Shown piece after piece: positions 25,009-64,000 of a stretch of 64,000 nucleotides of DNA. The notes under the pieces were generated by a model, which saw only the letters and a list, made by a program, of their open reading frames with translations, was not told the DNA's origin and did not search any database. Origin of the DNA: Chloroflexia bacterium (GTDB lineage Bacteria > Chloroflexota > Chloroflexia > Thermomicrobiales > UBA6265); NCBI GenBank assembly GCA_043427975.1, contig JBHWTK010000026.1, positions 915 to 64,914 of the forward strand, written 5' to 3'. Position numbers and translations under genes: made by a program. The number at the start of each line of letters is the position of its first letter. Positions within the stretch are counted from its first letter, which is position 1.

Positions 25009-26597
25009 CGTTCTGTAAACTCCCTGAAATAGACAGAATCCCCTGGTGAGAGCTGCCCGAGGCGATCCCAATTTTGGGAAACAACGGTGGCTATTTTGGT
25101 GTACCCGCCAATTGTGGCGTGCCCCGGTAGCATCACGATCGCCTGCCCCTCTCCGGTGACCTGGATGGAACCCGTCGCAATCCCTTCACTGAGGATGTCA
25201 GCACCATCCTCCGGGGCCAGAGAGGGCCCCAGCAGCCGCAAGCCAACCCGATTGGCATCCTGGCTGACGGTGAACCGTTCCGTGAGCAGTCGCTGCCAGG
25301 CGGCATCGCCAAAGCGGTTCCGCTGAACCCCGGGCAGGATTCGGAACGGCGTATCGAGGGCGAGGGACGATGATCCTGTATCCATTCCGGGCGCGAAGGG
25401 TGCAGGCTGGATATGCTGCTGCCCAACCGGCAGGCGGTCGCCCCGCATCAAGGCGCGACCCTGCCAGCCGCCGATACCCGCCAGCAGGCTGGTACTGGCA
25501 CTCCCCATGACCAGTGGCACATCGAACCCTCCCCGCACTGCGAGGTAGGCGTAGGCACCCACCGACGAGGGAGAGCGATGGAAAGTGAGTGCATCACCAG
25601 GCATGGTTTCGAACAGGCGATTCACCGGAAGCGGCCGTTCGTTCAGCCGGGCCCCAAGGTCTGCACCACTTAGTACCAGTTGTAACCGGCGATGGAACCG
25701 CAGCGCTGGCCCCTGATGGGCAATCTCCAGCGCTGCTGTCGCATCCGGGTTCCCTACCAGCCGGTTTGCACGCACCAGGCTGGCGCGGTCCATGGCACCG
25801 TCAGTGGCAAATCCGTATCGCGCCATGCCATAGCGCCCGAGGTCCTGCAAGGTGGCCTGGAACCCCGACGCGAGCACCTCGATCTGGCCATCCCCACAGG
25901 GTATCCCTGGAGCCGATTCAAGGTGTGAAAAATCGGCATGCGGAACCGGCTGGAAGCGAACCCGGTCACCCAGCTGCAACCGCACTGGTGGATCGGCCGA
26001 CGGGTCGAACAGGAGATCCGGCGAGCGGCCAATCAGGTTCCAGCCACCGGCCGAGGGAAGCGCGTAGACGCCCGTTTGTGCCCCGCCAATCCCTACGCTC
26101 CCGGCTGGAACAGCCAGGCGAGGACTTGCGCGGCGGGGTGTAAAGAGGGCTGGAGGCAATCCGATGAGATACGTAAATCCCGGCACGAATCCCACGGCGC
26201 CAACAGTGTACGTACTACTGGCGTGAAGTGTTATCACATCCTCAACGTTTATCCCGGAATGTTCCGATACGTTCGTTAAGTCTTCCCCGTATTCATCCCC
26301 ATAAACGACACTAATAGTGACGATGCTATCACCTGCCCGAACCGGTTTCTCGAACGTATGTTCCCATGCCATCCGGAGCAGAATGACAATTTCGTCCGTA
26401 CACTTTACGTTTTCATCATATACCGCCAGAATGGAGCCATATGAGGGGATGATTTCCCGGATCCCGGACTGGTTTCGGGCGTCCAAATAGCGCACTGTGG
26501 CAGCGATACGCGAGGTTGTGATTTCGCTCATGGTATCGGACACGGCAAACAACAGTACGCCGGGGATAATGTCGAAACTGTGGGGAAAATCGGTCAT
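25005..26597 (-). CDS. 5-oxoprolinase subunits PxpB and PxpC fused (KipI/KipA, allophanate-hydrolase-subunit-like)
   Basis: 530-aa single ORF. The N-terminal half is KipI/PxpB-like and the C-terminal half KipA/PxpC-like (cyclophilin-like folds). 4-nt overlap with pxpA. Confidence 0.85.
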   Translation of the reverse strand: MTDFPHSFDIIPGVLLFAVSDTMSEITTSRIAATVRYLDARNQSGIREIIPSYGSILAVYDENVKCTDEIVILLRMAWEHTFEKPVRAGDSIVTISVVYGDEYGEDLTNVSEHSGINVEDVITLHASSTYTVGAVGFVPGFTYLIGLPPALFTPRRASPRLAVPAGSVGIGGAQTGVYALPSAGGWNLIGRSPDLLFDPSADPPVRLQLGDRVRFQPVPHADFSHLESAPGIPCGDGQIEVLASGFQATLQDLGRYGMARYGFATDGAMDRASLVRANRLVGNPDATAALEIAHQGPALRFHRRLQLVLSGADLGARLNERPLPVNRLFETMPGDALTFHRSPSSVGAYAYLAVRGGFDVPLVMGSASTSLLAGIGGWQGRALMRGDRLPVGQQHIQPAPFAPGMDTGSSSLALDTPFRILPGVQRNRFGDAAWQRLLTERFTVSQDANRVGLRLLGPSLAPEDGADILSEGIATGSIQVTGEGQAIVMLPGHATIGGYTKIATVVSQNWDRLGQLSPGDSVYFREFTER

Positions 26598-39291: not shown

Positions 39292-40302
39292 ATGATTAAG
39301 TACCTGGGATCCAAGCGCAAGCTGGTGCCGCATATCCTGGAGCGGATTCAGGGGTTGCCGGTGCAGCGTGTATGCGACCTGTTCACCGGTACCACCCGGG
39401 TGGCCCAGGCTTGCAAGCGGGCCGGAATGTATGTGGTGGCAAACGACCTCGCCAGCTACAGCCATGTGTTTGCGACCGCCTATATCGCGGCGGATGCCAC
39501 CCGGCTGGACATGGACCGGCTGCAGGGCTGGATTAATCACCTGAACGCGCTGCCGCCCGCGCCGGGGTACATCACCCGCACGTTTTGCGAGGATGCGCGC
39601 TATTTCCAACCAAAGAACGGTGCCCGTATCGATGCCATGCGGGCCGGAATCGATGCGTTGCCAGCCTCGGAGCACGAACGCGCGGTGCTGCTGGCCGCGC
39701 TGCTGCTGGCGGCCGACCGGGTGGATTCCACCACGGGGTTGCAGATGGCCTACCTGAAACAGTGGTCGCCGCGATCCCACAACGATATCGAACTGCGCTT
39801 GCCGCACCTGCTGGACGGTCCCGGAGAGGCGCACCAGCAGGATGCCCTGATGTTCGCCCGGGCTGGTGGCACGCGGGATGTGGACCTGACCTACATCGAT
39901 CCGCCCTACAACCAGCACAGCTACGCTGGTAACTACCACGTGTGGGAAACCCTGGTGCGCAACGACGCCCCGGAGGCATACGGAGTCGCGCGCAAGCGCC
40001 TGGATGTGCGCGGTCAGCGCAATCCGTGGAACAGCAAACCGCGGTTCCGCGAGACCCTGGGCAATACACTGGCCGCGATTGAGAGCCGCTACATGCTGGT
40101 GAGTTTCAGTAATGAGGGGTTTCTCTCCAGTACCGACCTGGAAGCGCTGTTACAGGAATTCGGCCGCGTCGAGCGCACGGATATCGATTTCCGGCGCTAC
40201 ATCGGCGCCCAGATCGGCGTGCACAATCCCGCCGGGGAGAAGGTTGGAACGGTGTCGCACACGAAGAACGTGGAGCACCTGTTCCTCGTGGACCGGGGGT
40301 AG
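39292..40302 (+). CDS. N6-adenine DNA methyltransferase (D12/Dam-like class)
   Basis: MIKYLGSKRKL N-terminus, SAM motif DLFTGTTRV, catalytic YIDPPYN. No restriction endonuclease recognisable next to it. Confidence 0.87.
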   Translation: MIKYLGSKRKLVPHILERIQGLPVQRVCDLFTGTTRVAQACKRAGMYVVANDLASYSHVFATAYIAADATRLDMDRLQGWINHLNALPPAPGYITRTFCEDARYFQPKNGARIDAMRAGIDALPASEHERAVLLAALLLAADRVDSTTGLQMAYLKQWSPRSHNDIELRLPHLLDGPGEAHQQDALMFARAGGTRDVDLTYIDPPYNQHSYAGNYHVWETLVRNDAPEAYGVARKRLDVRGQRNPWNSKPRFRETLGNTLAAIESRYMLVSFSNEGFLSSTDLEALLQEFGRVERTDIDFRRYIGAQIGVHNPAGEKVGTVSHTKNVEHLFLVDRG

Positions 40303-40317
40303 GTTTCACAGGGGAAT

Positions 40318-40435
40318 GTAGGCCCGTCCTTCGCACCCTGAGCACAGCGAAGGGAAGAATGGGGCGGGCCCGGCAGGCATGGCCACCCGGTTCGATGGAC
40401 CCGCCCCATGGCCGTTCCGGCCAGGTCGGGTCTAC
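40318..40435. repeat. REPIN-like doublet, copy 1
   Basis: Forward REP GTAGGCCCGTCCTTCGCACCCTGAGCACAGCGAAGGGAAGAATGGGGCGGGC, plus inverted REP GGACCCGCCCCATGGCCGTTCCGGCCAGGTCGGGTCTAC. Confidence 0.85.
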
Positions 40436-40459
40436 ATTTGGGATTATTCCACGCGGGAA

Positions 40460-40582
40460 GTAGGCCCGTCCTTCGCACCCTGAGCGCAGCGAAGGGGAGA
40501 ATGGGGCGGGCCCGGAAGGCCGGGCAATCCCTGTGCCAGCCATGGATCCACCCAATGGCCGTTTCGGCCCGGACGGATCTAC
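40460..40582. repeat. REPIN-like doublet, copy 2
   Basis: The forward REP is nearly identical to copy 1. The inverted partner is degenerate (GGATCCACCCAATGGCCGTTTCGGCCCGGACGGATCTAC). Confidence 0.8.
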
Positions 40583-40607
40583 AGTTGGGCGTTATCCCAC
40601 ACGGCAA

Positions 40608-40659
40608 GGAGACCCGTCCTTCGCACCTTGAGCGCAGCGAAGGGGAGAATGGGGCGGGC
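40608..40659. repeat. Solo REP, degenerate head (GGAG instead of GTAG)
   Basis: GGAGACCCGTCCTTCGCACCTTGAGCGCAGCGAAGGGGAGAATGGGGCGGGC, ending 10 nt before the transposase start region. Confidence 0.75.
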
Positions 40660-40668
40660 ACAGGGAGA

Positions 40669-41208
40669 ATGTTGATGCCATTTCCGGATCGCACGTCCAT
40701 ACGCCCCGGCACCACCCGGCGGGTGCGTCTGAAGGATTTCGATTACTCTACCCCGGGCTACTACTTCATCACTATTTGCACGCATAACCGGCATCACTAC
40801 TTCGGATCAATAGCAGGCGAAGTCCTCAGCCTCACTCCCGCCGGAAACATGGTTGCAGATGCAATTCGCGAATCCGAATCGGTGTTTCCATCAACGGCTG
40901 TCGACTCATTTATCGTTATGCCCAACCACATTCACGTATTGTTTGGCCAATCGGTGCGTTTAGAGGATGAGCCGGGAACCACTGACCTGATTGACGTGGT
41001 GCAATGGCTTAAGAGCACAACCCATCAGCGGTTCCGCAAGGGTGTCTTGAAACACCGATGGACTCCATACGACCGGTTGGTTTGGCAAGAGGGGTATCAC
41101 GATCACATCGTTCGGAATGAACGTGAGTTGGATGCGCTTCGTGCGTATGTGATGAAAAACGTTGCCACATGGGAGAAGGACCGGTTCTACGACGGGATTG
41201 TGGGTTGA
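40669..41208 (+). CDS. REP-associated tyrosine transposase (RAYT; IS200/IS605-like Y1 HUH transposase)
   Basis: HUH motif MPNHIHVLF. Catalytic-Tyr region WQEGYHDHIVRNERELDALRAYV. ATG 40669 or 40675 after GGGAGA. The upstream part of track ORF 40408 is just REP sequence. Confidence 0.87.
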   Translation: MLMPFPDRTSIRPGTTRRVRLKDFDYSTPGYYFITICTHNRHHYFGSIAGEVLSLTPAGNMVADAIRESESVFPSTAVDSFIVMPNHIHVLFGQSVRLEDEPGTTDLIDVVQWLKSTTHQRFRKGVLKHRWTPYDRLVWQEGYHDHIVRNERELDALRAYVMKNVATWEKDRFYDGIVG

Positions 41209-44497: not shown

Positions 44498-44528
44498 GCC
44501 CGGACTTTATGTCCGGGCATTTGTTTGT
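44498..44528 (+). terminator. Terminator of the PBP gene
   Basis: GCCCGGAC-TTTAT-GTCCGGGC followed by ATTTGTTTGT. Confidence 0.7.
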
Positions 44529-44666: not shown

Positions 44667-46109
44667 TCATGTCCCCACCGCAATCCGGGGCCGGGGATCG
44701 AGATCGTCCAGCGCGGCAACGAGGGCAGCACTGAGCACCAGGTCATCATGACCAACATGGGCAGGCACGCCCCATTGCATGGTGTTACCTGGTCCGCGGC
44801 GCACCTCGTACTCCGTGGCAGCCAGCTGGGCATAGAACTCGTTCGTCAGCGCGTCCCCATCATCCGCATAGTCACGGAACCGCCCGGTTTCGATGAGCCC
44901 GATGAAATCCCATCCAAGGCGGCTCTTGCTGGCAGCCGAAAACACAAACGGCACCACGCGAATGCCGGTGCGGCGCAAGCTGGCCTCAAGGAAACTGGCC
45001 AGGCCCGCCCCAATGCCGGTGGAATCCACCACGATCCAGTTCGACCGCCATACATGCCGGGCCAGTTCCACGATATGCGCATGCAGGTCGGCGTGGCGGA
45101 TGCCGGTCCATGCCCGGCGATCGATAACGCGGTACACGGGCCGGGTGTCGGCGCGGCTGCGGGTATCCACCTCCACCACCGTGAGCGCCGTGCTATCGCG
45201 GCGACTGGTGCTGAAACTGTCAATACCGCCGCCGTGTTCTTCCTCGCCGGCAACATCCAGCAGCAGGGCGTAGCGCTTGCCGGGTTCGGCGCGGTACCGG
45301 CGTGGATGGTCGCCGCGCATCATCGCCAGGCGATGCGGCGGGAACAGGCTTTGCTGGCCATCCAGTTCTTCCAGGAAATACTCGGTGCGCACAAATGGAT
45401 GCTGCTCACCCAATTGGGCGATACGGCTCTGCACCCGCATGCCATAGGCGGGAACATCCTGCGCCACACGTTGCCATGGCACCACGAACACCCGTTGTAA
45501 TCCGTCGGCATGCTGCTTTTCGCGCAGGTAGCGCATCTGGCGGGCGAGCAATGTTTCGCGCGTCCAGACCGTGCCGAGGAAGAGAGTGGTTGCGTTGGTG
45601 GATGCCGCCATTGGATCGAACACTGCATCCCACACTGCCGGGCGGATATCCTGCGATTCGTTGGCGATAAGGCCGAGATCGGCAGTGAGGCCGCGCGCAT
45701 TGGCAGTACGGGCTGCCGAAACGAACACCGCCTGCGCGTTCCCGACACTGATGCTGCGGTCGCGCACGCGTACCAGTGGCGCGGTGATGGGGTTGGCCAG
45801 CAGCCGGTCGCACAGGCGGTCACGGCTAATCAGCGCCTGCGGCCGGAGGGTAGGGGCGGCCACCACAATGGTGCCGCCACGGGTTGCGTTACGCAGCAGC
45901 ACCCAGGCAATGATCTGGGCCAGTGTTTCATCCTTGCCGGCCTGGCGGCTGAACACCAGCGCAAATTGTTCGCCACTGCGGGCCAGCAGGTGCCGCGCCA
46001 GGGGACGTGCCGCCTCCAGCTGGTACCCGCGCATGGCGAACTGCGGCAGCCCGACCCGGCTAAAGCTGCCGATATCGCGCAGGGCAGCATGGAGCGGGCT
46101 TACACCCAT
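44667..46109 (-). CDS. Phage terminase large subunit-like protein (ATPase + RNaseH-like nuclease)
   Basis: Walker A-like FSRQAGKDE, Walker B-like LGLIANES, nuclease-domain Asp motifs LLLDVAG, WIVVDSTGIG and HDDLVLS. 480 aa with no frameshifts. Confidence 0.8.
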   Translation of the reverse strand: MGVSPLHAALRDIGSFSRVGLPQFAMRGYQLEAARPLARHLLARSGEQFALVFSRQAGKDETLAQIIAWVLLRNATRGGTIVVAAPTLRPQALISRDRLCDRLLANPITAPLVRVRDRSISVGNAQAVFVSAARTANARGLTADLGLIANESQDIRPAVWDAVFDPMAASTNATTLFLGTVWTRETLLARQMRYLREKQHADGLQRVFVVPWQRVAQDVPAYGMRVQSRIAQLGEQHPFVRTEYFLEELDGQQSLFPPHRLAMMRGDHPRRYRAEPGKRYALLLDVAGEEEHGGGIDSFSTSRRDSTALTVVEVDTRSRADTRPVYRVIDRRAWTGIRHADLHAHIVELARHVWRSNWIVVDSTGIGAGLASFLEASLRRTGIRVVPFVFSAASKSRLGWDFIGLIETGRFRDYADDGDALTNEFYAQLAATEYEVRRGPGNTMQWGVPAHVGHDDLVLSAALVAALDDLDPRPRIAVGT

Positions 46110-46291
46110 TGCAACAGCACATCCAGCAGCACGCTGGTGATTACAAGATAGAAAATGGCGTTGGTGCGGCTGCGCACCTCATCCAGGCTGGCGGCGAGTT
46201 GCTCCACCTTCTCGCGGGTAACCACCTCGTATGTGGAACGTGGTTGGAGATCAATGGCCGGGGCGGTGATGCGGGTGGGAATGGTTACCAT
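46100..46291 (-). CDS. Small tail-anchored membrane protein (63 aa)
   Basis: ATG 46291 has GAGGAGG 8 nt upstream. C-terminal TM helix AIFYLVITSVLLDVLLQWV. 10-nt overlap with the terminase-like gene. Confidence 0.55.
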   Translation of the reverse strand: MVTIPTRITAPAIDLQPRSTYEVVTREKVEQLAASLDEVRSRTNAIFYLVITSVLLDVLLQWV

Positions 46292-46629
46292 GGTGTTGCC
46301 TCCTCGTGTTCGACGTCGGTGAGCAGCTTGCGGATTTTGTCCGCCAGTTCGGGCTCCTGCGCGCTGTCCAGCGCGGCCTGGATACGGGCTGTGGTGGTGG
46401 CCACGCTCACGATGCGGGGAATGTGCTTGCATAGGGTCTCCAGGTCGTCTACCTCGGTCGTTACCCGCATCAGCAGGCGCCGCATCGCATTCCGCTCTGC
46501 GGCGAGGGTTTTTTCAGGTACGGCATCGGGCGTTGGGGAAAAGGGTCTTTCAGGCACGGCATCGGGCTCTGGGGCACAGGGCCTTTCAGGAACGGCATCC
46601 GGCTTTGATGCGTAGGGATGTTGGGGCAT
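46285..46629 (-). CDS. Small acidic protein with 3 x 12-aa N-terminal repeats (114 aa)
   Basis: ATG 46629 has GGAGGA 7 nt upstream. Repeats of PDAVPE(R/K)P-type 12-mers. 7-nt overlap with the next ORF. Confidence 0.55.
   Translation of the reverse strand: MPQHPYASKPDAVPERPCAPEPDAVPERPFSPTPDAVPEKTLAAERNAMRRLLMRVTTEVDDLETLCKHIPRIVSVATTTARIQAALDSAQEPELADKIRKLLTDVEHEEATPW
46513..46620. repeat. 36-bp tandem repeat x3 (within the 114-aa ORF)
   Basis: Units start at 46513, 46549 and 46585 (TTCAGGnACGGCATCGGGC...). The period is a multiple of 3. Confidence 0.8.
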
Positions 46630-46796
46630 GGGAATTCCTCCGGGTGGGATCGGTGTCGCCTACTTCCTATACGCATCGGAGGGGAACCAGCCAGCAGCGG
46701 GTGGCGTTGGATGTAACAGAGACGGTGGATACACTGTCGAAGGATTACCTGGGCGAAGGCTGATTTAATCGCCCATATCTATAGGGAGGACACAGG

Positions 46797-47798
46797 ATGC
46801 GACGACTGTTAACCGTACTCATTGCTGCAGGCATGCTCATGTCGGGCATGTTGGCAGCATCCGCACAGGAAGCCGGTAGCGCTGTTGCGACCGGAACAGG
46901 CTCACCCGTGACGTGGATCGATGAGCGTGGCAACGAAATCGCCACCATGCAGGTCACGGATGTTGAGAACGACTGGCAGGGATACGGAGAGTATTACGAA
47001 CCGGAGCGTGGATACATCTATGTCGCGGTAACCTTCGAGGTTTCCAACATCTCCGGGTCGTCGCTGGTTGTGGGCGCGTACGATTTCAGCATGATGGATG
47101 CGGAAGGCCGCAATAACGGTCGTTCATTCGTCTCCGTTGATGAAGGTTCCGATGAGCAGTTGTTCGAGGAAGATGCCGCAGTAGCCGACGGTGAGACCGT
47201 TGAGCTGAAGCAGGTCTTCGAGGTACCCAATGCGGTGCCGGCCGCCGCCTTTGTCTGGCAGCCGGATAGTGGCGTGCTGTTGATTGTTGATATCAGCGAA
47301 GGTGCCCTGGAGAACAGCGCCCTTGCCAATGGCCTGAACACCCCCGCCACCTGGACCGATGAGCGTGGCAACCCGGTAGCCACCATTGAGGTAACCGGCA
47401 TCAACCCCGATTGGCAGGATTACGGCGAGTACTACGAGCCAGAGCGCGGCATGGTGTACGTGGCCATCGATTTCAAGGTGACCAACGTATCTTCATCCAA
47501 CTTCGTCCTCGAGAACTACGATTTCAGCCTGCTGGATAACACCGGCATGAACAACCCCCGCACCTGGGCCGAGCCCGCAGAGGATGCGGATCCGATCTTC
47601 AGCGAAGATGTGGCGATTGCCGCCGGCGAAACCTACGAGGGAACCATCGTGTTCGCCGTCTACGATGATCTCGAGCCGTCGGTGCTTGTGTGGCAGCCGG
47701 AATCGGGCGTGCTTCACTTCGTGATGCTCGGTGAGGGCAGCCAGGGTGCCCCGGGCAGTGTCCCGGCGGGTACACCGGCCGCAACCCCGGCGGGTTAA
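46797..47798 (+). CDS. Secreted protein with two tandem DUF4352-like domains (paralog 1)
   Basis: Signal peptide MRRLLTVLIAAGMLMSGMLAASAQE. Two ~140-aa repeats (W.DERGN..AT..VT...DWQ.YGEYYEPERG..YVA..F.V.N.S...). GGGAGGA RBS. Confidence 0.8.
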   Translation: MRRLLTVLIAAGMLMSGMLAASAQEAGSAVATGTGSPVTWIDERGNEIATMQVTDVENDWQGYGEYYEPERGYIYVAVTFEVSNISGSSLVVGAYDFSMMDAEGRNNGRSFVSVDEGSDEQLFEEDAAVADGETVELKQVFEVPNAVPAAAFVWQPDSGVLLIVDISEGALENSALANGLNTPATWTDERGNPVATIEVTGINPDWQDYGEYYEPERGMVYVAIDFKVTNVSSSNFVLENYDFSLLDNTGMNNPRTWAEPAEDADPIFSEDVAIAAGETYEGTIVFAVYDDLEPSVLVWQPESGVLHFVMLGEGSQGAPGSVPAGTPAATPAG

Positions 47799-47827
47799 TC
47801 GCTTACGGGCGCGATCTGAATGACCAT

Positions 47828-47863
47828 ATAACTGCCGGCGTGAACTTGCACGCCGGCAGTTAT
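47828..47863 (+). terminator. Terminator of paralog 1
   Basis: ATAACTGCCGGCGTG-AACTTG-CACGCCGGCAGTTAT, 15-bp perfect stem. Weak T-tail. Confidence 0.6.
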
Positions 47864-47895
47864 CGTTCCTGAACCCAGCACACAAAGCCCACCCG

Positions 47896-47909
47896 TATGC
47901 TAGTGTGGA
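47896..47909 (+). promoter_or_regulatory. Conserved 14-mer upstream of paralog 2
   Basis: TATGCTAGTGTGGA, 55 nt before ATG 47964. An identical 14-mer occurs before paralog 3. Confidence 0.45.
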
Positions 47910-47963
47910 TTCACACCATGAGGAGTTATCTAACATTCCGTTCGGGCGGAAGGAGGAGCCGTT

Positions 47964-48950
47964 ATGAGCCGCATCCTGTGTCTTGCGATGCTGTTTGCGC
48001 TGATGTCCGCGCTGCTGCCGGTTTCCGCGCAGGAGACGGGAACCGCTGTCGGTGCCGGGCTGAATACGCCCGTAACGTGGGTCGACCAGCGCGGGAACGC
48101 GGTCGCCACCATGCAGGTCACGGATGTGGAGAACGACTGGCAGGGATACAGGGAGGCTTACGAACCAGAACGTGGATACATCTATGTCGCAGTGACGTTC
48201 GAGGTGACCAACCTCTCCGGCGCGCCCCTTCATATCAACGTGTTCGGTTTCAGCGTGATGGATGTCGAGGGTCGCACCGACCAACGCGCGTTTGTGGCGG
48301 TGCCGGATGATTCCGACGAGCAATTATTTGAAGAGGATATTGAGCTTGCCGATGGCGAGACGGCTGAACTCAAGCAGGTATTCAGGGTTCCGGCCAACGT
48401 TCCAGTGGCGGCGTTTGTGTGGCAGCCGGAGAACGGCGTGCTGTTGCTGGTGGATATCCGCGAAGGTGCCACGGAGAACAGTGCCCTTGCCGTTGGCCTG
48501 AACACCCCGGCCACCCTCACGGATGATCGGGGCAACCCGATCGCCACCATTGAGGTGACGGGCATCAACCCCGATTGGCAGGATTACGCCGAGGTCTACG
48601 CGCCCGATAGGGGCAAGGTTCACGTAGCCCTCGATGTCAGCGTCACGAATGTCTCGTCTACGGAGTTCACCCTGGAACCGTTCTACTTCAGCCTGGTAGA
48701 TTCGACCGGCATGAATAACGGCCGGAGCGGGGCGATGGCGGATGAAGGCAAGGATCCTGTTTTCAGCGAACCTGTCCCGATCGCGCCCGGCGACACCTAC
48801 CAGGGCACCATGGTGTTCACCATCTACGCCGACCTGCAGCCTGCCGTTTTGGCCTGGCAGCCGGATTCCGGCCTGATGCACTTTATCGTTCTCACCACGG
48901 CCGACCAGGCGCTTCCGGCCGGTACACCTGCTGCAACGCCGCAAGGTTAG
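47964..48950 (+). CDS. Secreted protein with two tandem DUF4352-like domains (paralog 2)
   Basis: Signal peptide MSRILCLAMLFALMSALLPVSAQE. Same two-repeat layout as 46797-47798. GGAAGGAGGAG RBS. Confidence 0.8.
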   Translation: MSRILCLAMLFALMSALLPVSAQETGTAVGAGLNTPVTWVDQRGNAVATMQVTDVENDWQGYREAYEPERGYIYVAVTFEVTNLSGAPLHINVFGFSVMDVEGRTDQRAFVAVPDDSDEQLFEEDIELADGETAELKQVFRVPANVPVAAFVWQPENGVLLLVDIREGATENSALAVGLNTPATLTDDRGNPIATIEVTGINPDWQDYAEVYAPDRGKVHVALDVSVTNVSSTEFTLEPFYFSLVDSTGMNNGRSGAMADEGKDPVFSEPVPIAPGDTYQGTMVFTIYADLQPAVLAWQPDSGLMHFIVLTTADQALPAGTPAATPQG

Positions 48951-48985
48951 GCGTGTTGCCTGGCATCACGGTGGAATCACCGCGG

Positions 48986-49028
48986 CAACTACCGGGGTGC
49001 ATACGCATCCCGGTGGTTGTGATTAATA
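48986..49028 (+). terminator. Terminator of paralog 2
   Basis: CAACTACCGGG-(12-nt loop)-CCCGGTGGTTG, 11-bp stem with one G-U, followed by TGATTAAT. Confidence 0.5.
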
Positions 49029-49067
49029 GCCCGCCAGCCTGCGATAGATCCCAATTTCACCGGTCGT

Positions 49068-49081
49068 TATGCTAGTGTGGA
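49068..49081 (+). promoter_or_regulatory. Conserved 14-mer upstream of paralog 3
   Basis: TATGCTAGTGTGGA, 57 nt before ATG 49138. Confidence 0.45.
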
Positions 49082-49137
49082 AGTACATCACGTACACCCG
49101 CTTCCGTATACATATGTGTGTTGAAGGAGTGATCGCC

Positions 49138-49650
49138 ATGAAAGGTATGGTTCGTTTGCTGATCATGCTTGCGCTGCTCGTTTCTCCGGCACTGGTTGCC
49201 TCTGCCCAAACGCCAGTCGTTACCTCGGGTGAACCTCAGGCGTTCGCTTCCGGGGTTGGCCAGCCCGCCACGTTTTTCGATGATCGCGGTAACCCGATCC
49301 TTGAGGTGGTAGTCACCGGGATGGAAATGGACTGGCAGGACTACGACGAGATGTATCCGCCGGACCGTGGCATGGTGTACGTGAAGATCGATTTCACCTT
49401 CACCAACCTCACCGACAGCGCCGAGACGATCATGCCCTATAGCATCATGCTGATCGATTCCACAGGCCTCATGCTGAACCAGGCCTATATGCCAGACAAT
49501 CCGGACATCATGATCGAGGACATCCCGCTGGATGCCGGGGGCACCGTGGAAGGCAGCCTGATCTTCTCGGCCTACCAGGAGTTCGAGCCGATAATGGTGA
49601 TGTGGCAACCGGAGTACACCCAGTACGTGTTTATCCATCTCGGCGAGTAA
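49138..49650 (+). CDS. Secreted single-domain DUF4352-like protein (paralog 3)
   Basis: ATG 49138 after GAAGGAG. Signal peptide MKGMVRLLIMLALLVSPALVASAQ. One repeat unit homologous to paralogs 1 and 2. Confidence 0.75.
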   Translation: MKGMVRLLIMLALLVSPALVASAQTPVVTSGEPQAFASGVGQPATFFDDRGNPILEVVVTGMEMDWQDYDEMYPPDRGMVYVKIDFTFTNLTDSAETIMPYSIMLIDSTGLMLNQAYMPDNPDIMIEDIPLDAGGTVEGSLIFSAYQEFEPIMVMWQPEYTQYVFIHLGE

Positions 49651-49734: not shown

Positions 49735-51252
49735 CTAGTCCTCGGAGCGGCGCACCACGAAGGCGGACATCATGATGGTCACGATACATCCGGCAGCAAT
49801 GAGCACGGTCATGGGCATCGCACTGGTACCGCCGGCACCGGTGCTCGGCAGCGCTGATACGGTGGGCTCTGCCGCGACCGTAGACGTCGCAGTTGATTGT
49901 GTGCCCTGGGTGGGGGCGGCCGTAGCGGGTACGACCGTGCCGGTTGCAGGTGCGACGGGAGGAGCGGGAACCTGCAATACCATCTCGCGAGTGGTGCCAT
50001 CGACCGTCAGCAGGAACTCAATTGGGGTCCTGCCCTCGGGGCGAATCACCAACTGGTAGGTCCCGTACGGGATGTCGGCCAGCTGGATCGTGTTGTTTGC
50101 ACCCACAATGCCCGAACGATATGGCTGCACCGCCGCCTGCGAAGCGACTGGCGCGTAGAGATCCCACGGCACCCCTGAGATGTTCTCGCCGTTTGGCATG
50201 GCGATACGGAGGGTCATCGTCGGCAGGTTTGGCGTAACCGTCGGCGTCTCAACGGTGGTGCTGGTGGGCGTTACACCCGGTTCGCTGGTGGACGTCGGCA
50301 CGACCGTTTCTGTGGCTGTCGGCTCGATGGTGGGCGATGGGGTCACACCAGGTTCCGACGTAGCAGCGGACGTTGGAGACGGTTCTATTGTGGCTGTTGG
50401 CGATGGTTCAGCCGTGGCCGTTGGCGATGGTTCAGTTGTCGCTGTTGGCGATGGTTCAGTTGTCGCTGTTGGTTCCGGTGTATTGGTTGGTGTTGGCTCC
50501 GGCGTATTCGTCGGAGTCGGCTCCGGTGTATTGGTTGGGGTCGGCTCCGGTGTATTGGTCGGAGTTGGCTCCGGCGTGTTGGTTGGAGTTGGCTCCGGCG
50601 TGTTGGTTGGCGTGGGTTCCGGTGTATTGGTTGGGGTCGGCTCCGGCGTGTTGGTTGGAGTGGGCACTGGTGTATTGGTCGGGGTCGGCTCTGGCGTGTT
50701 GGTTGGCGTGGGTTCCGGTGTATTGGTAGGTTCTGGTGTGGGTACTGGCAGGGAAGCAACCACGCAGCGAACCTCGCGGAAGGAGACGCCCGATACCGCG
50801 CCGCCCGTCATGCTGTCGATCACCGAGCCGCTGATGTAATACCGCACCGTCGTACCCGGAGCCGGGCTGCCGTAGCCAAAGCCCGTTCCGGCACTATAGC
50901 TGAGCGTGACCGTGCCATCGAAGGTCGATTGGACGTACGGGTTGGCGGTGGTGAAGTAAAACGTGCCGTTTACCGAGATAGGCGTGAGCATGGCGTTGTA
51001 TCGTGGGTCACCCGTCGGCTGAACGGTCGTCTTCAGGTAGAAATCCTGGTGGTACACACCGTTTTCCCAGCGACCGGGGCCACAGGAAAACGCATCGACA
51101 GTTGCCTGGCCGCTACCGTTCCATTGGGCACTGGCTGACAATGGCAACATTACGAGCAGCATAATGACTGCCGCCGCGGCACGCAGGCCGGACGCTCGTT
51201 CTCTGGTCACTCTTCTCTTCCCCCAGCTTGTCCGTAGGTACGAGATCCCCAT
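49735..51252 (-). CDS. LPXTG-anchored surface protein with Pro/Thr-rich repeat stalk
   Basis: Signal peptide; ~125-aa N-terminal domain; 11 x PTPTNTPE repeats plus 4 x SPTATxEP; Ig/CarboxypepD_reg-like domain. C-terminal LPSTG + hydrophobic helix + RRSED sorting signal. Confidence 0.85.
   Translation of the reverse strand: MGISYLRTSWGKRRVTRERASGLRAAAAVIMLLVMLPLSASAQWNGSGQATVDAFSCGPGRWENGVYHQDFYLKTTVQPTGDPRYNAMLTPISVNGTFYFTTANPYVQSTFDGTVTLSYSAGTGFGYGSPAPGTTVRYYISGSVIDSMTGGAVSGVSFREVRCVVASLPVPTPEPTNTPEPTPTNTPEPTPTNTPVPTPTNTPEPTPTNTPEPTPTNTPEPTPTNTPEPTPTNTPEPTPTNTPEPTPTNTPEPTPTNTPEPTATTEPSPTATTEPSPTATAEPSPTATIEPSPTSAATSEPGVTPSPTIEPTATETVVPTSTSEPGVTPTSTTVETPTVTPNLPTMTLRIAMPNGENISGVPWDLYAPVASQAAVQPYRSGIVGANNTIQLADIPYGTYQLVIRPEGRTPIEFLLTVDGTTREMVLQVPAPPVAPATGTVVPATAAPTQGTQSTATSTVAAEPTVSALPSTGAGGTSAMPMTVLIAAGCIVTIMMSAFVVRRSED
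50471..50734. repeat. 24-bp tandem repeat x11 (coding, PT stalk)
   Basis: Units GG(C/T)TCCGG(T/C)GT(A/G)TTGGT(T/C)GG(N)GT(N) begin at 50471 and recur every 24 nt to 50734. A second 24-bp repeat type precedes it (~50376-50470). Confidence 0.9.
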
Positions 51253-51472: not shown

Positions 51473-52453
51473 GTGATGGCCGCCAATGTGATTGACCATT
51501 ATGAGGGACATTCTGTGACAGATATGACGCCAGGGTTGGCATTCCCGGGTGATGCCAGTGAGCTTGCAGTTTTCGTTGACTTCGAGAATATTCGCTATTC
51601 CACCATCAACTCGTTTGGCCGGGAACCGGATCCGCTGTTGTGGCGCGATATGGCCATGAAGCACGGCCTGATGGGTGTATCCCGCGCCTATGCCGATTTC
51701 GACCAGCACCCGGAGGCGGTACGCACCCGCCTGGATGTGGCCGGTTTTGAGGCGTTCCACTATCCGGCCAAGCGCGTAACCGATGCAACCGGCCGCGAGC
51801 GCTACACCAGCCGCAGCGACCTGAATATGGCGGTGGATATCATCAACACCGCGCTGGCACGTCCCGATATCAACACGTTCATGATCTTCAGTGGCGACAA
51901 GGATTTCATCCGCCTCGTCACCACGCTGCGTAACCGGCTTGGCAAGCGCGTGATCATCGCCGGGGTCCCGGGGTCGGTGAGCCCTGAACTGGTGGCGGCG
52001 GCTGGAGAGAGCGACCTGATCGAGATGGAGCCGAGCGCCGATGTCGATGCAGCGGTAATCGAGGCCATCGATACCTACATCCGCCAGCTCCACGATGGCT
52101 TCGTGCCCACCCAAAGCCACATGAGCCGCACGCTGTGGCGCTTCCTCGATCGTTCCCTGTTGCCCAGCGAGCATATCGAGGCCAAGGTGATGGAGTTCCT
52201 GCGCAAGGGCGTGCTTACCAAGCGCCAGACCATTAACGGCCAGGGGCAGGAACTAGTCACCACCGAGCTGAACCCTGAACACCCGCTGGTGGTGCAAGTG
52301 CTGGGTGAACGCCCGGCGGCGCAGAACGATACCACCATGCGCGATATCGAGCCGCAACCGCAGCCCGCGCACCATGCGGCCCAGGAGCCTGCACCTGAAC
52401 GGGCCTACCAGCGCCGGTTTGCTCCTACTACTCGCGGGCTGAACCGGCGGTAA
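51473..52453 (+). CDS. NYN (LabA-like) domain protein with C-terminal helical domain
   Basis: LAVFVDFENIRYS...SRAYADF...DLNMAVDIINTA...TFMIFSGDKDFIRLVTTLRNRLGKRVIIAG is the NYN/LabA nuclease-fold pattern. GTG/ATG start at 51473/51476. Confidence 0.83.
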   Translation: MMAANVIDHYEGHSVTDMTPGLAFPGDASELAVFVDFENIRYSTINSFGREPDPLLWRDMAMKHGLMGVSRAYADFDQHPEAVRTRLDVAGFEAFHYPAKRVTDATGRERYTSRSDLNMAVDIINTALARPDINTFMIFSGDKDFIRLVTTLRNRLGKRVIIAGVPGSVSPELVAAAGESDLIEMEPSADVDAAVIEAIDTYIRQLHDGFVPTQSHMSRTLWRFLDRSLLPSEHIEAKVMEFLRKGVLTKRQTINGQGQELVTTELNPEHPLVVQVLGERPAAQNDTTMRDIEPQPQPAHHAAQEPAPERAYQRRFAPTTRGLNRR

Positions 52454-56556: not shown

Positions 56557-56650
56557 GTAGACCCGTCCTGACCGCGAAGCGGTCATGGGGCGGGTTTCCC
56601 TCAACCAGGCACGCATCCCGCCATCACGCCGGATGGTGCCCGCCCGATTC
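56557..56650. repeat. 94-bp direct repeat of 56269-56362
   Basis: The first 46 nt (56557-56602) are identical to 56269-56314, and the last 16 nt GGTGCCCGCCCGATTC are identical. The middle 32 nt have diverged. Confidence 0.85.
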
Positions 56651-56704
56651 CTCTGCGGCGGCATAGGGCCCGAATACCCTGATTTCGAACCAGAACAACA
56701 ATTC

Positions 56705-56718
56705 CGAACGAATGTTTG
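56705..56718. promoter_or_regulatory. LexA (Cheo/SOS) box, one mismatch
   Basis: CGAACGAATGTTTG versus the consensus CGAAC-N4-GTTCG. Confidence 0.45.
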
Positions 56719-56737
56719 GAATTGTGCCCGTACACCC

Positions 56738-56766
56738 TTGACAACGTGTCACCGGCATGCGAACAT
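56738..56766 (+). promoter_or_regulatory. Promoter overlapped by the perfect LexA box
   Basis: TTGACA (56738-43), 17-nt spacer, GAACAT (56761-66), about 100 nt upstream of ATG 56867. Confidence 0.5.
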
Positions 56767-56773
56767 GTGTTCG
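56760..56773. promoter_or_regulatory. LexA (Cheo/SOS) box, perfect match
   Basis: CGAACATGTGTTCG equals CGAAC-N4-GTTCG and covers the putative -10 element. Confidence 0.6.
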
Positions 56774-56866
56774 TACACCCCGATGGGACTGATCCGGAAC
56801 ATCCCGAACAGGGGCCCTCACCTGACGTATGAACGAGCCGGCGATCCGGCAGAAGGACGTATTGAT

Positions 56867-57106
56867 ATGACAACCCTGCTGCTGAACACCTTCCTGGTGC
56901 TGATCACGATCCTCTTTGCCGCCATGGCGCTCTACCCGCTCTTCCTGGGCGGCCCGGATACCGACCTCCAGGCCGAACCGTTCGGCGAGGATCACGTTAT
57001 CAGCGTGGTGCCGGTAGGCCTGGATTCGCGGCGACCGACCCCGATTGGCCCGGCGCCTGCAGGCGAATCGCGCGATGAGCATCCGGGGCACCAGCCGGCT
57101 GCATAA
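56867..57106 (+). CDS. Small single-pass membrane protein (79 aa)
   Basis: ATG 56867 after GAAGGA. N-terminal TM helix LLLNTFLVLITILFAAMALYPLFL, then an acidic/Pro-rich tail. First ORF downstream of the LexA-box promoter. Confidence 0.45.
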   Translation: MTTLLLNTFLVLITILFAAMALYPLFLGGPDTDLQAEPFGEDHVISVVPVGLDSRRPTPIGPAPAGESRDEHPGHQPAA

Positions 57107-61817: not shown

Positions 61818-62639
61818 TCAATCGTCGTACGGGATTTGCTCGTTACAGTAGCTCCCATGATACGGGCAATAGCGGCAATACCAACCAGGTGTGGCTTTCC
61901 ACTCGGTTTCACTGGCCATGGCTTCCATTTGGGCGACGATTCCGGGCCAGGCGTGGTTGCAGTGCTCCACGGACACATCCACGTCGTCCGCATAGCCATA
62001 ATCCAGCCAGAACCAGCTAAATTGCACCTGCGCCTCGCTGGCATTGCCGGTCCATTCTTGCAACTTCTGGCGGGTTACATAGCGGTGAATCACCGGGACA
62101 TCCGGCTCGGGACGCACACTGCCGGTTTTCCAGTCGACGATATGAATCACTGGTTTGCCATCATCCATACGGCGACGGAGGATCAAATCCGGTTTGGCGG
62201 TGAGCCGGTAGGGTGCCCTGGCGGGGAACAGCGAAACCTCGCGGTATTCCTGGGACTCGATCAGCAGCCAGCCTTCCACATCATCCAGGCGCTCGAGGTA
62301 GCGCTGGCCCCGCCGAACCCACTGCAACACCAACTCGATATCGGCCTGGCGGGCAGCCTCGCTGGGGTATTCGGGAATGGGAAGCTTCATGCGGGCGCGG
62401 AACCGGATTTCGTCGTCGGTCATAAGCGGGGCACCAACCTTCATCTGGTTGGCGATGGTTCTGAGGGCATCGTGGGTGGAATTGCCCATGGCAAAGGCGC
62501 GAATCCACGTGTCCGGCGGGTCGATGTTATCCAGGTAGCGGAGCCTGTTGCGGTACGGGCACTGCCCAAACGTCTTGAGCGAACTCGGCGACATCACAAT
62601 ACTGTTCGGCCATCGCCTGAGGCGTTCGCTTTCGATCAC
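61818..62639 (-). CDS. PD-(D/E)xK nuclease with Cas4/AddB-like 4-Cys (Fe-S) arrangement
   Basis: N-terminal Cys (FGQCPYRNRLRY); core D...HIVDWKTG (D/ExK); C-terminal CRYCPYHGSYC. 273 aa. Confidence 0.78.
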   Translation of the reverse strand: MIESERLRRWPNSIVMSPSSLKTFGQCPYRNRLRYLDNIDPPDTWIRAFAMGNSTHDALRTIANQMKVGAPLMTDDEIRFRARMKLPIPEYPSEAARQADIELVLQWVRRGQRYLERLDDVEGWLLIESQEYREVSLFPARAPYRLTAKPDLILRRRMDDGKPVIHIVDWKTGSVRPEPDVPVIHRYVTRQKLQEWTGNASEAQVQFSWFWLDYGYADDVDVSVEHCNHAWPGIVAQMEAMASETEWKATPGWYCRYCPYHGSYCNEQIPYDD

Positions 62640-63374: not shown

Positions 63375-64000
63375 ATGCCGATACGGGGAGTAGTGAGCGT
63401 GCAACAAACGTGCGGAAACTGCGGAAAACCGGTGAGCGGCAGCGATATCACCTGCCCGCATTGCGATGCACTGCTGGCGGCGTACGCCTCGCCGGCCGGA
63501 TCGGTGTCGAATGGTGCATGGGAATCGTCCGCGCCCATCACCGAAGCAACCCCACCGGCAGGGATGGACGAACCTGCACCGGCAACCCCTATCGAGATCC
63601 CTACCGAGGTTGAAGCGGGATCATCCGCACCGCGGCCACTGTTCGATACCAATGTGACCATCGAGGAACTTCGGGAAGCCGCCGACGGCGAGCAGGATGA
63701 CACCCTGCTGGTGATGGCAGAAGAGCAGGTCGATCCGAAACCAGTAACGTTCGATGGACCGGACTACGCCAAACCGCCGTCGACAGCAGAACCTGTCCCG
63801 GTGATGGAGAATGTCAGCGAGGAGATGATTGCTCGCCCGGCCGAGCCGGCGAAGGCAGCGGCAGCGCCGGATGCAACCAGCGAGAACCCGCCGAGCCTAG
63901 CCAAAGAAGATGTGGCTCCCGCCCGGCCCGTTCGCAAGCAGCCGCCGACTCCTGAAGAGCGACGGGCGCAGGCCGAGCGCGGCCAAACCGAGGAGTACCT
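63375..64000 (+). CDS. Zinc-ribbon protein with long Pro/Ala/Glu-rich region (5' part; runs off the window)
   Basis: Open frame from ATG 63375 (alternatives GTG 63393 or 63399) to the window end. CGNCGKPVSGSDITCPHCDA zinc ribbon. Not in the track because there is no in-window stop. Confidence 0.55.
   Translation, partial: MPIRGVVSVQQTCGNCGKPVSGSDITCPHCDALLAAYASPAGSVSNGAWESSAPITEATPPAGMDEPAPATPIEIPTEVEAGSSAPRPLFDTNVTIEELREAADGEQDDTLLVMAEEQVDPKPVTFDGPDYAKPPSTAEPVPVMENVSEEMIARPAEPAKAAAAPDATSENPPSLAKEDVAPARPVRKQPPTPEERRAQAERGQTEEY

Follow-up and report, generated by a model that had tools for sequence, protein, structure and literature searches.

The subject of this report is a group of three coupled genes in a stretch of 64,000 nucleotides from a Chloroflexia bacterium of the order Thermomicrobiales (GenBank assembly GCA_043427975.1, contig JBHWTK010000026.1, positions 915 to 64,914), hereafter called the window. 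The genes encode a large terminase (TerL) and two small proteins, orf63 and orf114, and are referred to as the trio. They were found as follows:

44667-46109, minus strand: terL-like gene, 480 amino acids, with an N-terminal ASCE ATPase and a C-terminal RNase H-like nuclease
46100-46291, minus strand: orf63, 63 amino acids; the same frame has a longer reading starting at 46432
46285-46629, minus strand: orf114, 114 amino acids

The stop of orf63 and the start of terL overlap by 10 nt (ATGGGTGTAA), and a stop/start overlap of 7 nt (ATGGTAA) joins orf114 and orf63. Shine-Dalgarno-type sequences, GAGGAGG and GGAGGA, were present upstream of both small open reading frames (ORFs), and no obvious Shine-Dalgarno sequence of its own was seen upstream of terL. 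The overlaps and the lack of an obvious Shine-Dalgarno sequence at terL fit translational coupling.

TerL was identified by sequence and by fold. The Pfam family Terminase_6C matched residues 299-432 with 24.3 bits (cut-off 22.6), and the terL family PHROG_2 (phrog_2) matched with an E-value of 4.9e-11. A profile search of PDB sequences gave nothing useful and only the fold search was informative. An AlphaFold2 model, built from 24 homologues, had a mean predicted local distance difference test score (pLDDT) of 67, with 80-93 in the ATPase domain and low confidence in the C-terminal nuclease part. The top 23 Foldseek matches of this model in the PDB were all solved large terminases, including those of T7-like PhiV-1, T4 (gp17), Sf6 (gp2), HK97, D6E and P74-26, and the ATPase domain of the model matched the ATPase domains of T4, P74-26 and D6E. 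The active-site motifs lie at residues 53-61 (FSRQAGKDE), 145-152 (LGLIANES), 282-288 (LLLDVAG), 360-367 (VVDSTGIG) and 454-460 (HDDLVLS), and correspond to the following features:

45927-45950, minus strand: Walker A, residues 54-61 (SRQAGKDE), with Asp60 at the usual Ser/Thr position, invariant in the homologue alignment
45657-45674, minus strand: Walker B, residues 146-151 (GLIANE), with Asn150 for the usual Asp and the catalytic Glu151 retained
44742-45257, minus strand: span of the nuclease acidic residues D285 (45255-45257), D362 (45024-45026) and D455/D456 (44742-44747)

SRQAGKDE and LIANE were invariant in the homologue alignment. Among 270 family members the nuclease residues were conserved as Asp in 259 (D285), 249 (D362), 242 (D455) and 242 (D456); nearly all other entries were gaps in truncated sequences, with five substitutions in total. 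Residues 60 and 150 covaried strictly in the 240 full-length members, 146 of which carried D60/N150 and 94 N60/D150, with not a single D/D or N/N combination. The D60/N150 form is that of the Thermomicrobiales clade to which the window belongs. The N60/D150 form includes Bacillus phage vB_BboS-125, whose TerL reads GKN at Walker A and GDE at Walker B. In P-loop ATPases the Mg ion is contacted at both of these positions, by the residue that follows the Walker A Lys as well as by the Walker B Asp. The D/N swap looks like a compensated move of the Mg-ligand carboxylate from Walker B to Walker A, which argues for a working TerL ATPase.

Two features expected of a TerL were found within the protein, an ATPase with Walker A, Walker B and catalytic Glu (the change of Walker B Asp to Asn apparently being compensated by Asp60) and an RNase H-like nuclease with three acidic positions. 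With the tailed-phage terminases T4 gp17, Sf6 gp2, HK97, T7 and vB_BboS-125 the protein shares the two-domain fold, the SRQxGK Walker A, the catalytic Glu and the three nuclease Asp residues. It differs from them in the Walker B change from D to N and the Walker A change from N or T/S to D of the Thermomicrobiales clade, and it is only 28-29% identical to vB_BboS-125, the nearest TerL of a cultured phage. Judged from sequence and predicted fold, the gene product is an intact large terminase in which all catalytic motifs are retained.

An initial annotation, made from the letters of the DNA, had described an intact 480-residue terminase-like ORF coupled to a 63-residue tail-anchored membrane ORF and a 114-residue acidic ORF, with five motif strings in the terminase. 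All ORFs, overlaps and ribosome-binding sites were present in the sequence, the five motifs stood at the expected places, and Terminase_6C, PHROG_2 and the 23 top Foldseek matches agreed on the terminase identity. The hydrophobic C-terminal helix of the 63-residue protein and the acidity of the 114-residue protein (isoelectric point 5.0) were likewise confirmed. Its remark that no other phage genes lie nearby also held, as family hidden Markov models (HMMs) found the trio alone in the 64 kb, and so did its description of a PBP gene and secreted DUF4352 genes as neighbours, which proved to be a PBP1A gene and three DUF4352 genes.

TerL is widespread in the host group. A protein search gave 1931 homologues, the top 120 of which were full length and 60-88% identical; the named sources among these 120 were Thermomicrobiales or Chloroflexia metagenome-assembled genomes (MAGs), and many of the 120 lay on contigs of 0.1-0.8 Mb. 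An exhaustive profile search gave 2293 clusters (50% identity), of which 543 fell below 1e-30. With one genome scanned per species, relatives of TerL were found in at least 158 GTDB species, with Nitrolancea hollandica, Sphaerobacter, Thermomicrobiaceae and one Chloroheliaceae MAG among the carriers. The ratio of nonsynonymous to synonymous substitution rates (dN/dS) of terL was 0.10-0.14 against the five closest relatives (75-84% identity) and at most 0.25 against more distant ones, at saturated dS. Values for orf63 and orf114 were about 0.25 and 0.3, also at saturated dS. The overall GC content of the trio and that at third codon positions (GC3) were those of the surrounding host genes.

These results bear on the explanation that the trio is a decaying remnant, left as the last genes of a prophage now dead and without present function. 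An isolated position with no other phage gene in 64 kb would suit a remnant, as would the IS200-like gene and the clear rearrangements nearby. Against it stand the low dN/dS values of all three genes, the invariance of all catalytic residues, full-length orthologues in at least 158 species and a conserved upstream element, described below, that is common to trio, capsid and portal loci. Purifying selection, wide full-length distribution and host-like GC and GC3 were taken to rule out a decaying remnant, to which only a very slight probability is given.

In many relatives the trio forms part of a larger, contiguous gene set of roughly 11 kb. Gene-order maps were made with tblastn and HMMs for 83 genome loci and 22 IMG/VR loci. 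In the locus L086, whose terL is 62% identical to that of the window, one strand carried in order a gene related to orf114 (g139 family), a gene related to orf63 (g73 family), terL, a 131-residue scaffold-like protein, a 296-residue HK97-type capsid and an SPP1-type portal, followed by an SU10-type adaptor, a MuF-like zinc-motif protein, a 607-residue protein, a 341-residue amidase-like protein and a 93-residue holin. Pfam and PHROG assignments were obtained for the capsid (phrog_212, 3e-78), portal (SPP1_portal, 8e-21), adaptor (SU10_adaptor), MuF-like protein (Phage_Mu_F) and holin (phrog_1299, 7e-14); the amidase match was weak. The 607-residue protein belongs to a family of 164 homologues, all in this group. 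Its model had a pLDDT of 84.7 and its best PDB folds were podovirus tail nozzle or hub proteins, namely those of Pa223, Pan3, P22 (gp10), PhiM1 (nozzle), Sf6 (gp8), SU10 and T7 (gp12). From this nozzle-like fold and the family assignments, the module is therefore predicted to encode head, short-tail and lysis functions within about 11.5 kb. It is flanked on both sides by ordinary host genes, and neither an integrase nor a repressor or replication gene was seen in L086. Its capsid type is about 43% identical to that of the nearest cultured phage.

The gene order of the module varied. Several orders were seen and the ORFs were intact despite permutation between lineages. In Sphaerobacter and Nitrolancea terL comes after the adaptor, and it is the capsid genes, not terL, that have the g139-g73 pair at their head. 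The module was found in the culturable Nitrolancea hollandica Lb (locus L075) and is probably also carried by Sphaerobacter species. Of the species loci, 28 were well flanked, with 8 kb or more on each side, and 20 of these had a capsid, portal or nozzle gene within 10 kb of terL. The other eight had an isolated trio like that of the window, one of them with a holin-family gene. In further genomes, including the closest relatives of the window, the module was split into two or three intact loci 11-240 kb apart with host genes between them. In the genome P0071 the scaffold, capsid and amidase genes are separated from terL by 11 kb that hold ApbA, UbiA, UbiE and further host genes. In P0068 the capsid, portal, adaptor, nozzle, amidase and holin genes lie 240 kb from terL, interleaved with host genes. 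The MAG GCA_023957095.1, with a terL 79% identical to that of the window, has scaffold and capsid genes 38 kb from the trio on one 65-kb contig. Wherever an isolated trio could be checked on long contigs, a capsid gene was found elsewhere on the same chromosome (three of three genomes), in one case together with portal and nozzle genes. In GCA_023957095.1 the capsid gene lies about 3 kb from the PBP1A-DUF4352-NYN genes, which flank the trio in the window, and this exchange of neighbours points to frequent local rearrangements.

A mobile element would be another source of such a gene set, either a widespread small temperate podophage or a satellite resembling the capsid-forming phage-inducible chromosomal islands (cf-PICIs), integrated at various sites. 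Several loci are listed as viral contigs in IMG/VR, the flanking host genes vary between genomes and the structural gene set resembles a minimal head module, all of which would agree with mobility. No integrase, excisionase, repressor or replication gene was found among the Pfam-annotated genes of nine distinct loci, which speaks against it, as does the splitting of the set by host genes over up to 240 kb and its permuted order with intact ORFs. Only one locus per assembly was seen among the 80 genome loci listed, a count that comes from the listing and not from a direct copy-number test. Distances of terL correlated with those of ApbA and UbiA, two linked housekeeping genes (r = 0.96; seven loci, 21 non-independent pairs), and terL evolved no faster than these two genes in the same seven loci. 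A mobile element is therefore regarded as quite improbable, the host-like base composition of the genes also counting against it. cf-PICIs are small elements that encode their own capsid, portal and terminase, as is the case here. They carry integrase and replication genes and borrow the tails of helper phages, unlike the present set, which has no integrase, has a nozzle gene of its own and is dispersed. The marks of a functional temperate prophage were likewise not seen, with integrase, repressor and replication genes absent from the nine annotated loci, the genes dispersed and no tRNA in the window. Long chromosomal residence is favoured over a mobile element. Vertical inheritance and co-diversification with the hosts are supported, within limits, by the ApbA/UbiA correlation, the lineage-specific gene order in Sphaerobacter and Nitrolancea and the host-like GC3.

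The two small proteins belong to conserved families. orf63 was assigned to the g73 family (HMM E-value 7e-22), in which the alignment showed a conserved core, IDLxPxSxYEAVTRxxVE, followed by a C-terminal transmembrane helix; in orf63 itself the helix gave a Kyte-Doolittle maximum of 2.47 near residue 53. In at least 53 of 83 loci the gene immediately preceding terL was of the g73 family. orf114 was assigned to the g139 family (HMM E-value 9e-13). Only its C-terminal helical domain is conserved, and the N-terminal CxxC..CxxH zinc ribbon of most homologues is absent in the clade of the window. Its N-terminus is instead extended by a repeat:

46512-46607, minus strand: 36-nt unit in 2.7 tandem copies, which codes for the PDAVPE-rich N-terminal extension of orf114

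The repeat is specific to the window and absent from the aligned homologues. Neither protein matched a Pfam or PHROG family, and scans across family members (PHROGs for g73 and g139, Pfam for g139) gave no credible match. Weak matches were limited to XhlA for one g73 homologue (E 0.06) and to zinc-finger or HNH-finger families that cover just the g139 ribbon. PADLOC gave no defence-system match for any of the three trio proteins. No similarity was found when the g139 family was compared by hhalign with the presumed small terminase of vB_BboS-125, whose gene lies upstream of the phage terL. As a guess, orf114 may be the small terminase. Hypothetically it might act in packaging initiation, the loss of the DNA-binding ribbon relaxing specificity in the way proposed for the small terminases of gene transfer agents (GTAs).

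Upstream sequences connect the trio with the capsid and portal loci. The 11-mer GATGCGTATAG, which the trio of the window also carries, occurred nine times, in seven independent places, in 1.5 Mb of fetched loci, compared with about 0.7 expected. Every occurrence was on the coding strand upstream of the head of a locus: at the trio heads of L004, L005, L084, L114 and L006, at the capsid head of L111 and of its two copies and at the portal head of L006. L007 had a form with one mismatch at all three of its loci. In the window no sigma-70 promoter was found by consensus scan, and the following promoter-like sequence was seen:

46667-46678, minus strand: 12-mer CGATGCGTATAG, promoter-like, 47 nt upstream of the orf114 ATG, with a single occurrence in the window

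A second element, the palindrome AGAAC-N4-GTTCT, was present in 19 of 45 trio-head upstream regions, compared with a background of 0.0095 per 200 nt. It matches the LexA (Cheo) box of Gram-positive bacteria (consensus from PMC2248561). Cheo-like boxes were also seen at capsid and portal heads of split genomes. From this match we infer that LexA would bind these boxes in Chloroflexota, and AGAACATATGTTCT is a candidate LexA-binding sequence. Two LexA/Cheo-type boxes, one exact and the other near (CGAACACATGTTCG and AAACATTCGTTCG), lie in the intergenic region 56640-56890 of the window. The homologue of this region in GCA_023957095.1 lies immediately upstream of the trio, and the two sequences diverge exactly where the MAG has GATGCGTATAG. 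Here a rearrangement breakpoint appears to have separated the operators from the trio and its promoter element. Further exact GAAC-N4-GTTC boxes lie at 26352 and 37467 in the window. The LexA-like box was often found within a longer 22-bp palindrome, GATAAGAACATATGTTCTTATC, upstream of the module heads of L039, L031, L003, L088, L006 and L007. This palindrome exceeds the canonical Cheo box in length and could belong to a dedicated repressor rather than to LexA.

The shared upstream element also weighs on the explanation that in this lineage TerL and its two partners act on their own without a capsid, for instance as a membrane-associated DNA translocase/nuclease in defence, repair or uptake. 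The eight of 28 well-flanked loci without capsid, portal or nozzle gene within 10 kb would be expected from such an exaptation, and the membrane anchor of orf63, its coupling to terL and the loss of the zinc ribbon in the clade of the window could be read in the same way. This reading is set against the capsid genes found elsewhere in all three checkable genomes with an orphan trio, the same 11-mer at trio heads as at capsid and portal loci, the negative PADLOC result and the g139-g73 pair that heads the capsid genes in Sphaerobacter and Nitrolancea. A stand-alone function was judged unlikely. The initial annotation had weighed a last remnant of a prophage against a domesticated translocase/nuclease module. 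The former did not survive, as the genes are intact and under purifying selection and relatives hold the complete head, short-tail and lysis set. Of the latter, the domestication was upheld by the conservation and dN/dS analyses it had proposed (trio conserved, at least 158 species, terL dN/dS about 0.1), and the stand-alone module was not, with the trio belonging to a head, short-tail and lysis set in relatives. A cluster lacking its own terL, which it had proposed to look for elsewhere in the genome, was found in relatives, namely in the three checkable genomes.

The explanation that best fits these data, and which is held with good confidence, is that the trio is the DNA-packaging locus of a chromosomally fixed, vertically inherited and dispersed podovirus-derived particle system of Thermomicrobiales, a candidate 'viriform' that is GTA-like or resembles the defective prophage PBSX. 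The rest of the set would be expected in the source genome by analogy with the relatives. According to the proposed mechanism, the GATGCGTATAG element would serve as promoter of the trio, whose translation would proceed by stop/start coupling. TerL would then dock on the portal of procapsids made from genes elsewhere in the genome, its ATPase pumping double-stranded DNA and its RNase H-like nuclease cutting it. The adaptor and nozzle would close the head to give a short-tailed particle, and the holin and amidase would release it. Induction would probably be SOS-linked in many lineages because of the LexA-type AGAAC-N4-GTTCT boxes at locus heads.

Several points weigh against this particle system. 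The 64-kb window holds no capsid, portal, adaptor, nozzle or lysis gene by family HMMs, and for this reason membership in a complete set was inferred from relatives. The head of the window trio has no LexA-type box. No function could be assigned to either small protein and no recognisable small terminase was found, nor was a tail fibre or receptor-binding protein identified. The host co-divergence comes from seven loci of linked genes. Particle production, packaging of host DNA and transfer in this group are predicted from the genes alone.

A GTA would be the more specific form of the particle system. The definition and criteria of GTAs and viriforms have been published (PMC9662315). Caudoviricete-derived proteins, as required there, are present as gene content (capsid, portal, adaptor, MuF and nozzle) and are known here from the genes alone. 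Endogenised genes at multiple loci, a further criterion of that definition (PMC9662315), are represented by loci that lie 11, 38 and 240 kb from one another, with intervening host genes, and the isolated trio of the window fits this arrangement. Dispersal over up to 240 kb makes self-packaging of the whole gene set impossible in those genomes. A portal and capsid alongside TerL, expected for a packaging terminase, are lacking in the window and present in the 20 of 28 loci, as well as elsewhere on the chromosome in the three checkable genomes. It is proposed, tentatively and with slightly more doubt than confidence, that Thermomicrobiales carry an ancient, order-wide, podovirus-derived GTA of independent origin. 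It would be a chromosomal regulon of dispersed loci with a shared promoter element, LexA-type operators in many lineages and a TerL with a relocated Mg-binding carboxylate.

The same particle system could alternatively be a PBSX-like killer or lysis particle, or have some other use than transfer. The LexA-type boxes found at many locus heads point to induction by the SOS response, by which PBSX is known to be induced; holin and amidase are present and no receptor-binding protein was identified. The same doubt has been raised for the GTA of Faecalibacterium, FpGTA (PMC12946183). A killer particle would have the same anatomy as a GTA and nothing here separates the two. It was counted within the particle-system explanation and, taken by itself, was considered possible but rather unlikely.

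By description, and not by sequence, the closest known analogue of the proposed particle system is FpGTA, which consists of a 10.5-kb operon and a second locus with lysis genes about 125 kb away and is podovirus-like, reportedly the first GTA of that morphology (PMC12946183, Nat Commun 2026). Likenesses are TerL, portal, scaffold and capsid genes in one operon of about 10 kb, proteins like those of short-tailed phages, near-ubiquity in the host clade, a candidate small terminase without DNA-binding domain and the lysis locus about 125 kb off. FpGTA differs in belonging to another phylum, and the genes of the present set are spread over up to three or more loci in permuted order. Particles and packaged DNA of 8.5-9 kb have been demonstrated for FpGTA (PMC12946183), whereas the system described here is known from genes alone. 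With the RcGTA type (Rhodogtaviriformidae, PMC9662315) it shares caudoviricete-derived head and packaging genes that are endogenised at multiple loci. It also shares the absence of integration and replication genes and a host-like evolution under purifying selection. RcGTA has a siphovirus-like long tail and is controlled by CtrA/GafA, in contrast to the podovirus-type adaptor and nozzle and the LexA-type boxes seen here, and family searches showed no sequence relationship between the two. PBSX of Bacillus subtilis, a defective, SOS-induced and non-transferring element that packages 13 kb of host DNA, is similar in being chromosomal, not self-transmissible and likely damage-inducible, and in having a lysis cassette. 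The weak XhlA-like match of one g73 homologue (E 0.06) is a lead only. PBSX forms one uninterrupted element of about 28 kb and has a contractile tail, unlike the set of about 11 kb with a short tail, often dispersed, that is described here.

In the library searched, no relevant paper was found that connects GTAs, terminases or capsids with Thermomicrobia, Thermomicrobiales, Chloroflexi, Chloroflexota or Sphaerobacter. Known GTA-type systems are few and almost all are from Alphaproteobacteria, and each independent domestication shows how a virus becomes a cellular DNA-export organelle. If the present proposal is true, Chloroflexota, a major phylum of soil and wastewater, would gain a candidate for virus-like gene exchange or SOS-linked lysis, and the system would be a natural case of a phage gene set that came apart to form a co-regulated regulon. 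A direct test is possible for the compensated D/N swap of the TerL ATPase site. When these genomes are annotated, 'orphan' terminases or capsids should not be put down as prophage debris, and viral calls of the IMG/VR type on these loci are probably host genes. The IMG/VR loci L089-L096 and L100, listed as viral contigs, are the chromosomal module with host flanks and were probably mis-called as viruses.

Around the trio the gene order in the window was LuxR-type STAND, TPR protein, Dam-like methyltransferase, IS200-like gene, PBP1A, trio, three DUF4352 genes, NYN and ABC transporters. No tRNA and no Rfam match was found in the window. A marginal MuF HMM match at 63701-63952 was rejected because it lies in a non-coding frame. 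Other features of the window were:

44498-44518, strand not assigned: GC-rich hairpin between the convergent PBP1A and terL genes, from a consensus scan only, possibly their shared terminator on weak evidence
39292-41208: Dam-like type II or orphan N6-adenine DNA methyltransferase (PADLOC MTase_II, 7e-142), with no obvious restriction partner, adjoining the IS200-like Y1 transposase-domain gene
46797-49650, plus strand: three paralogous secreted DUF4352 genes, divergent beside the trio, two of them internally duplicated
49735-51252, minus strand: 505-residue secreted protein with an LPSTG sortase-type anchor and a (PTNTPEPT)n array of 24-nt units in about 15 copies
51473-52453, plus strand: NYN-domain protein with a weak PADLOC HEC-09/NYN match
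61818-62639, minus strand: 273-residue Cas4/RecB-type PD-(D/E)XK nuclease-like protein with a C-terminal four-Cys cluster, CRYCPYHGSYC

For the last of these only a marginal PADLOC Cas4-like match (E 0.0099) was obtained. The (PTNTPEPT)n gene accounts for the strong GC/AT skew anomaly at 50-51 kb. The NYN gene is syntenic with DUF4352 and PBP1A in the close relatives L084 and L111. In 14 of 51 related loci the trio head had a divergent DUF4352 gene no more than 1.5 kb away, and 27 of 83 loci held DUF4352 homologues somewhere. This neighbourhood could mark the place of an ancestral insertion, or the genes could be linked in function, DUF4352 acting for instance at the surface or as a receptor.

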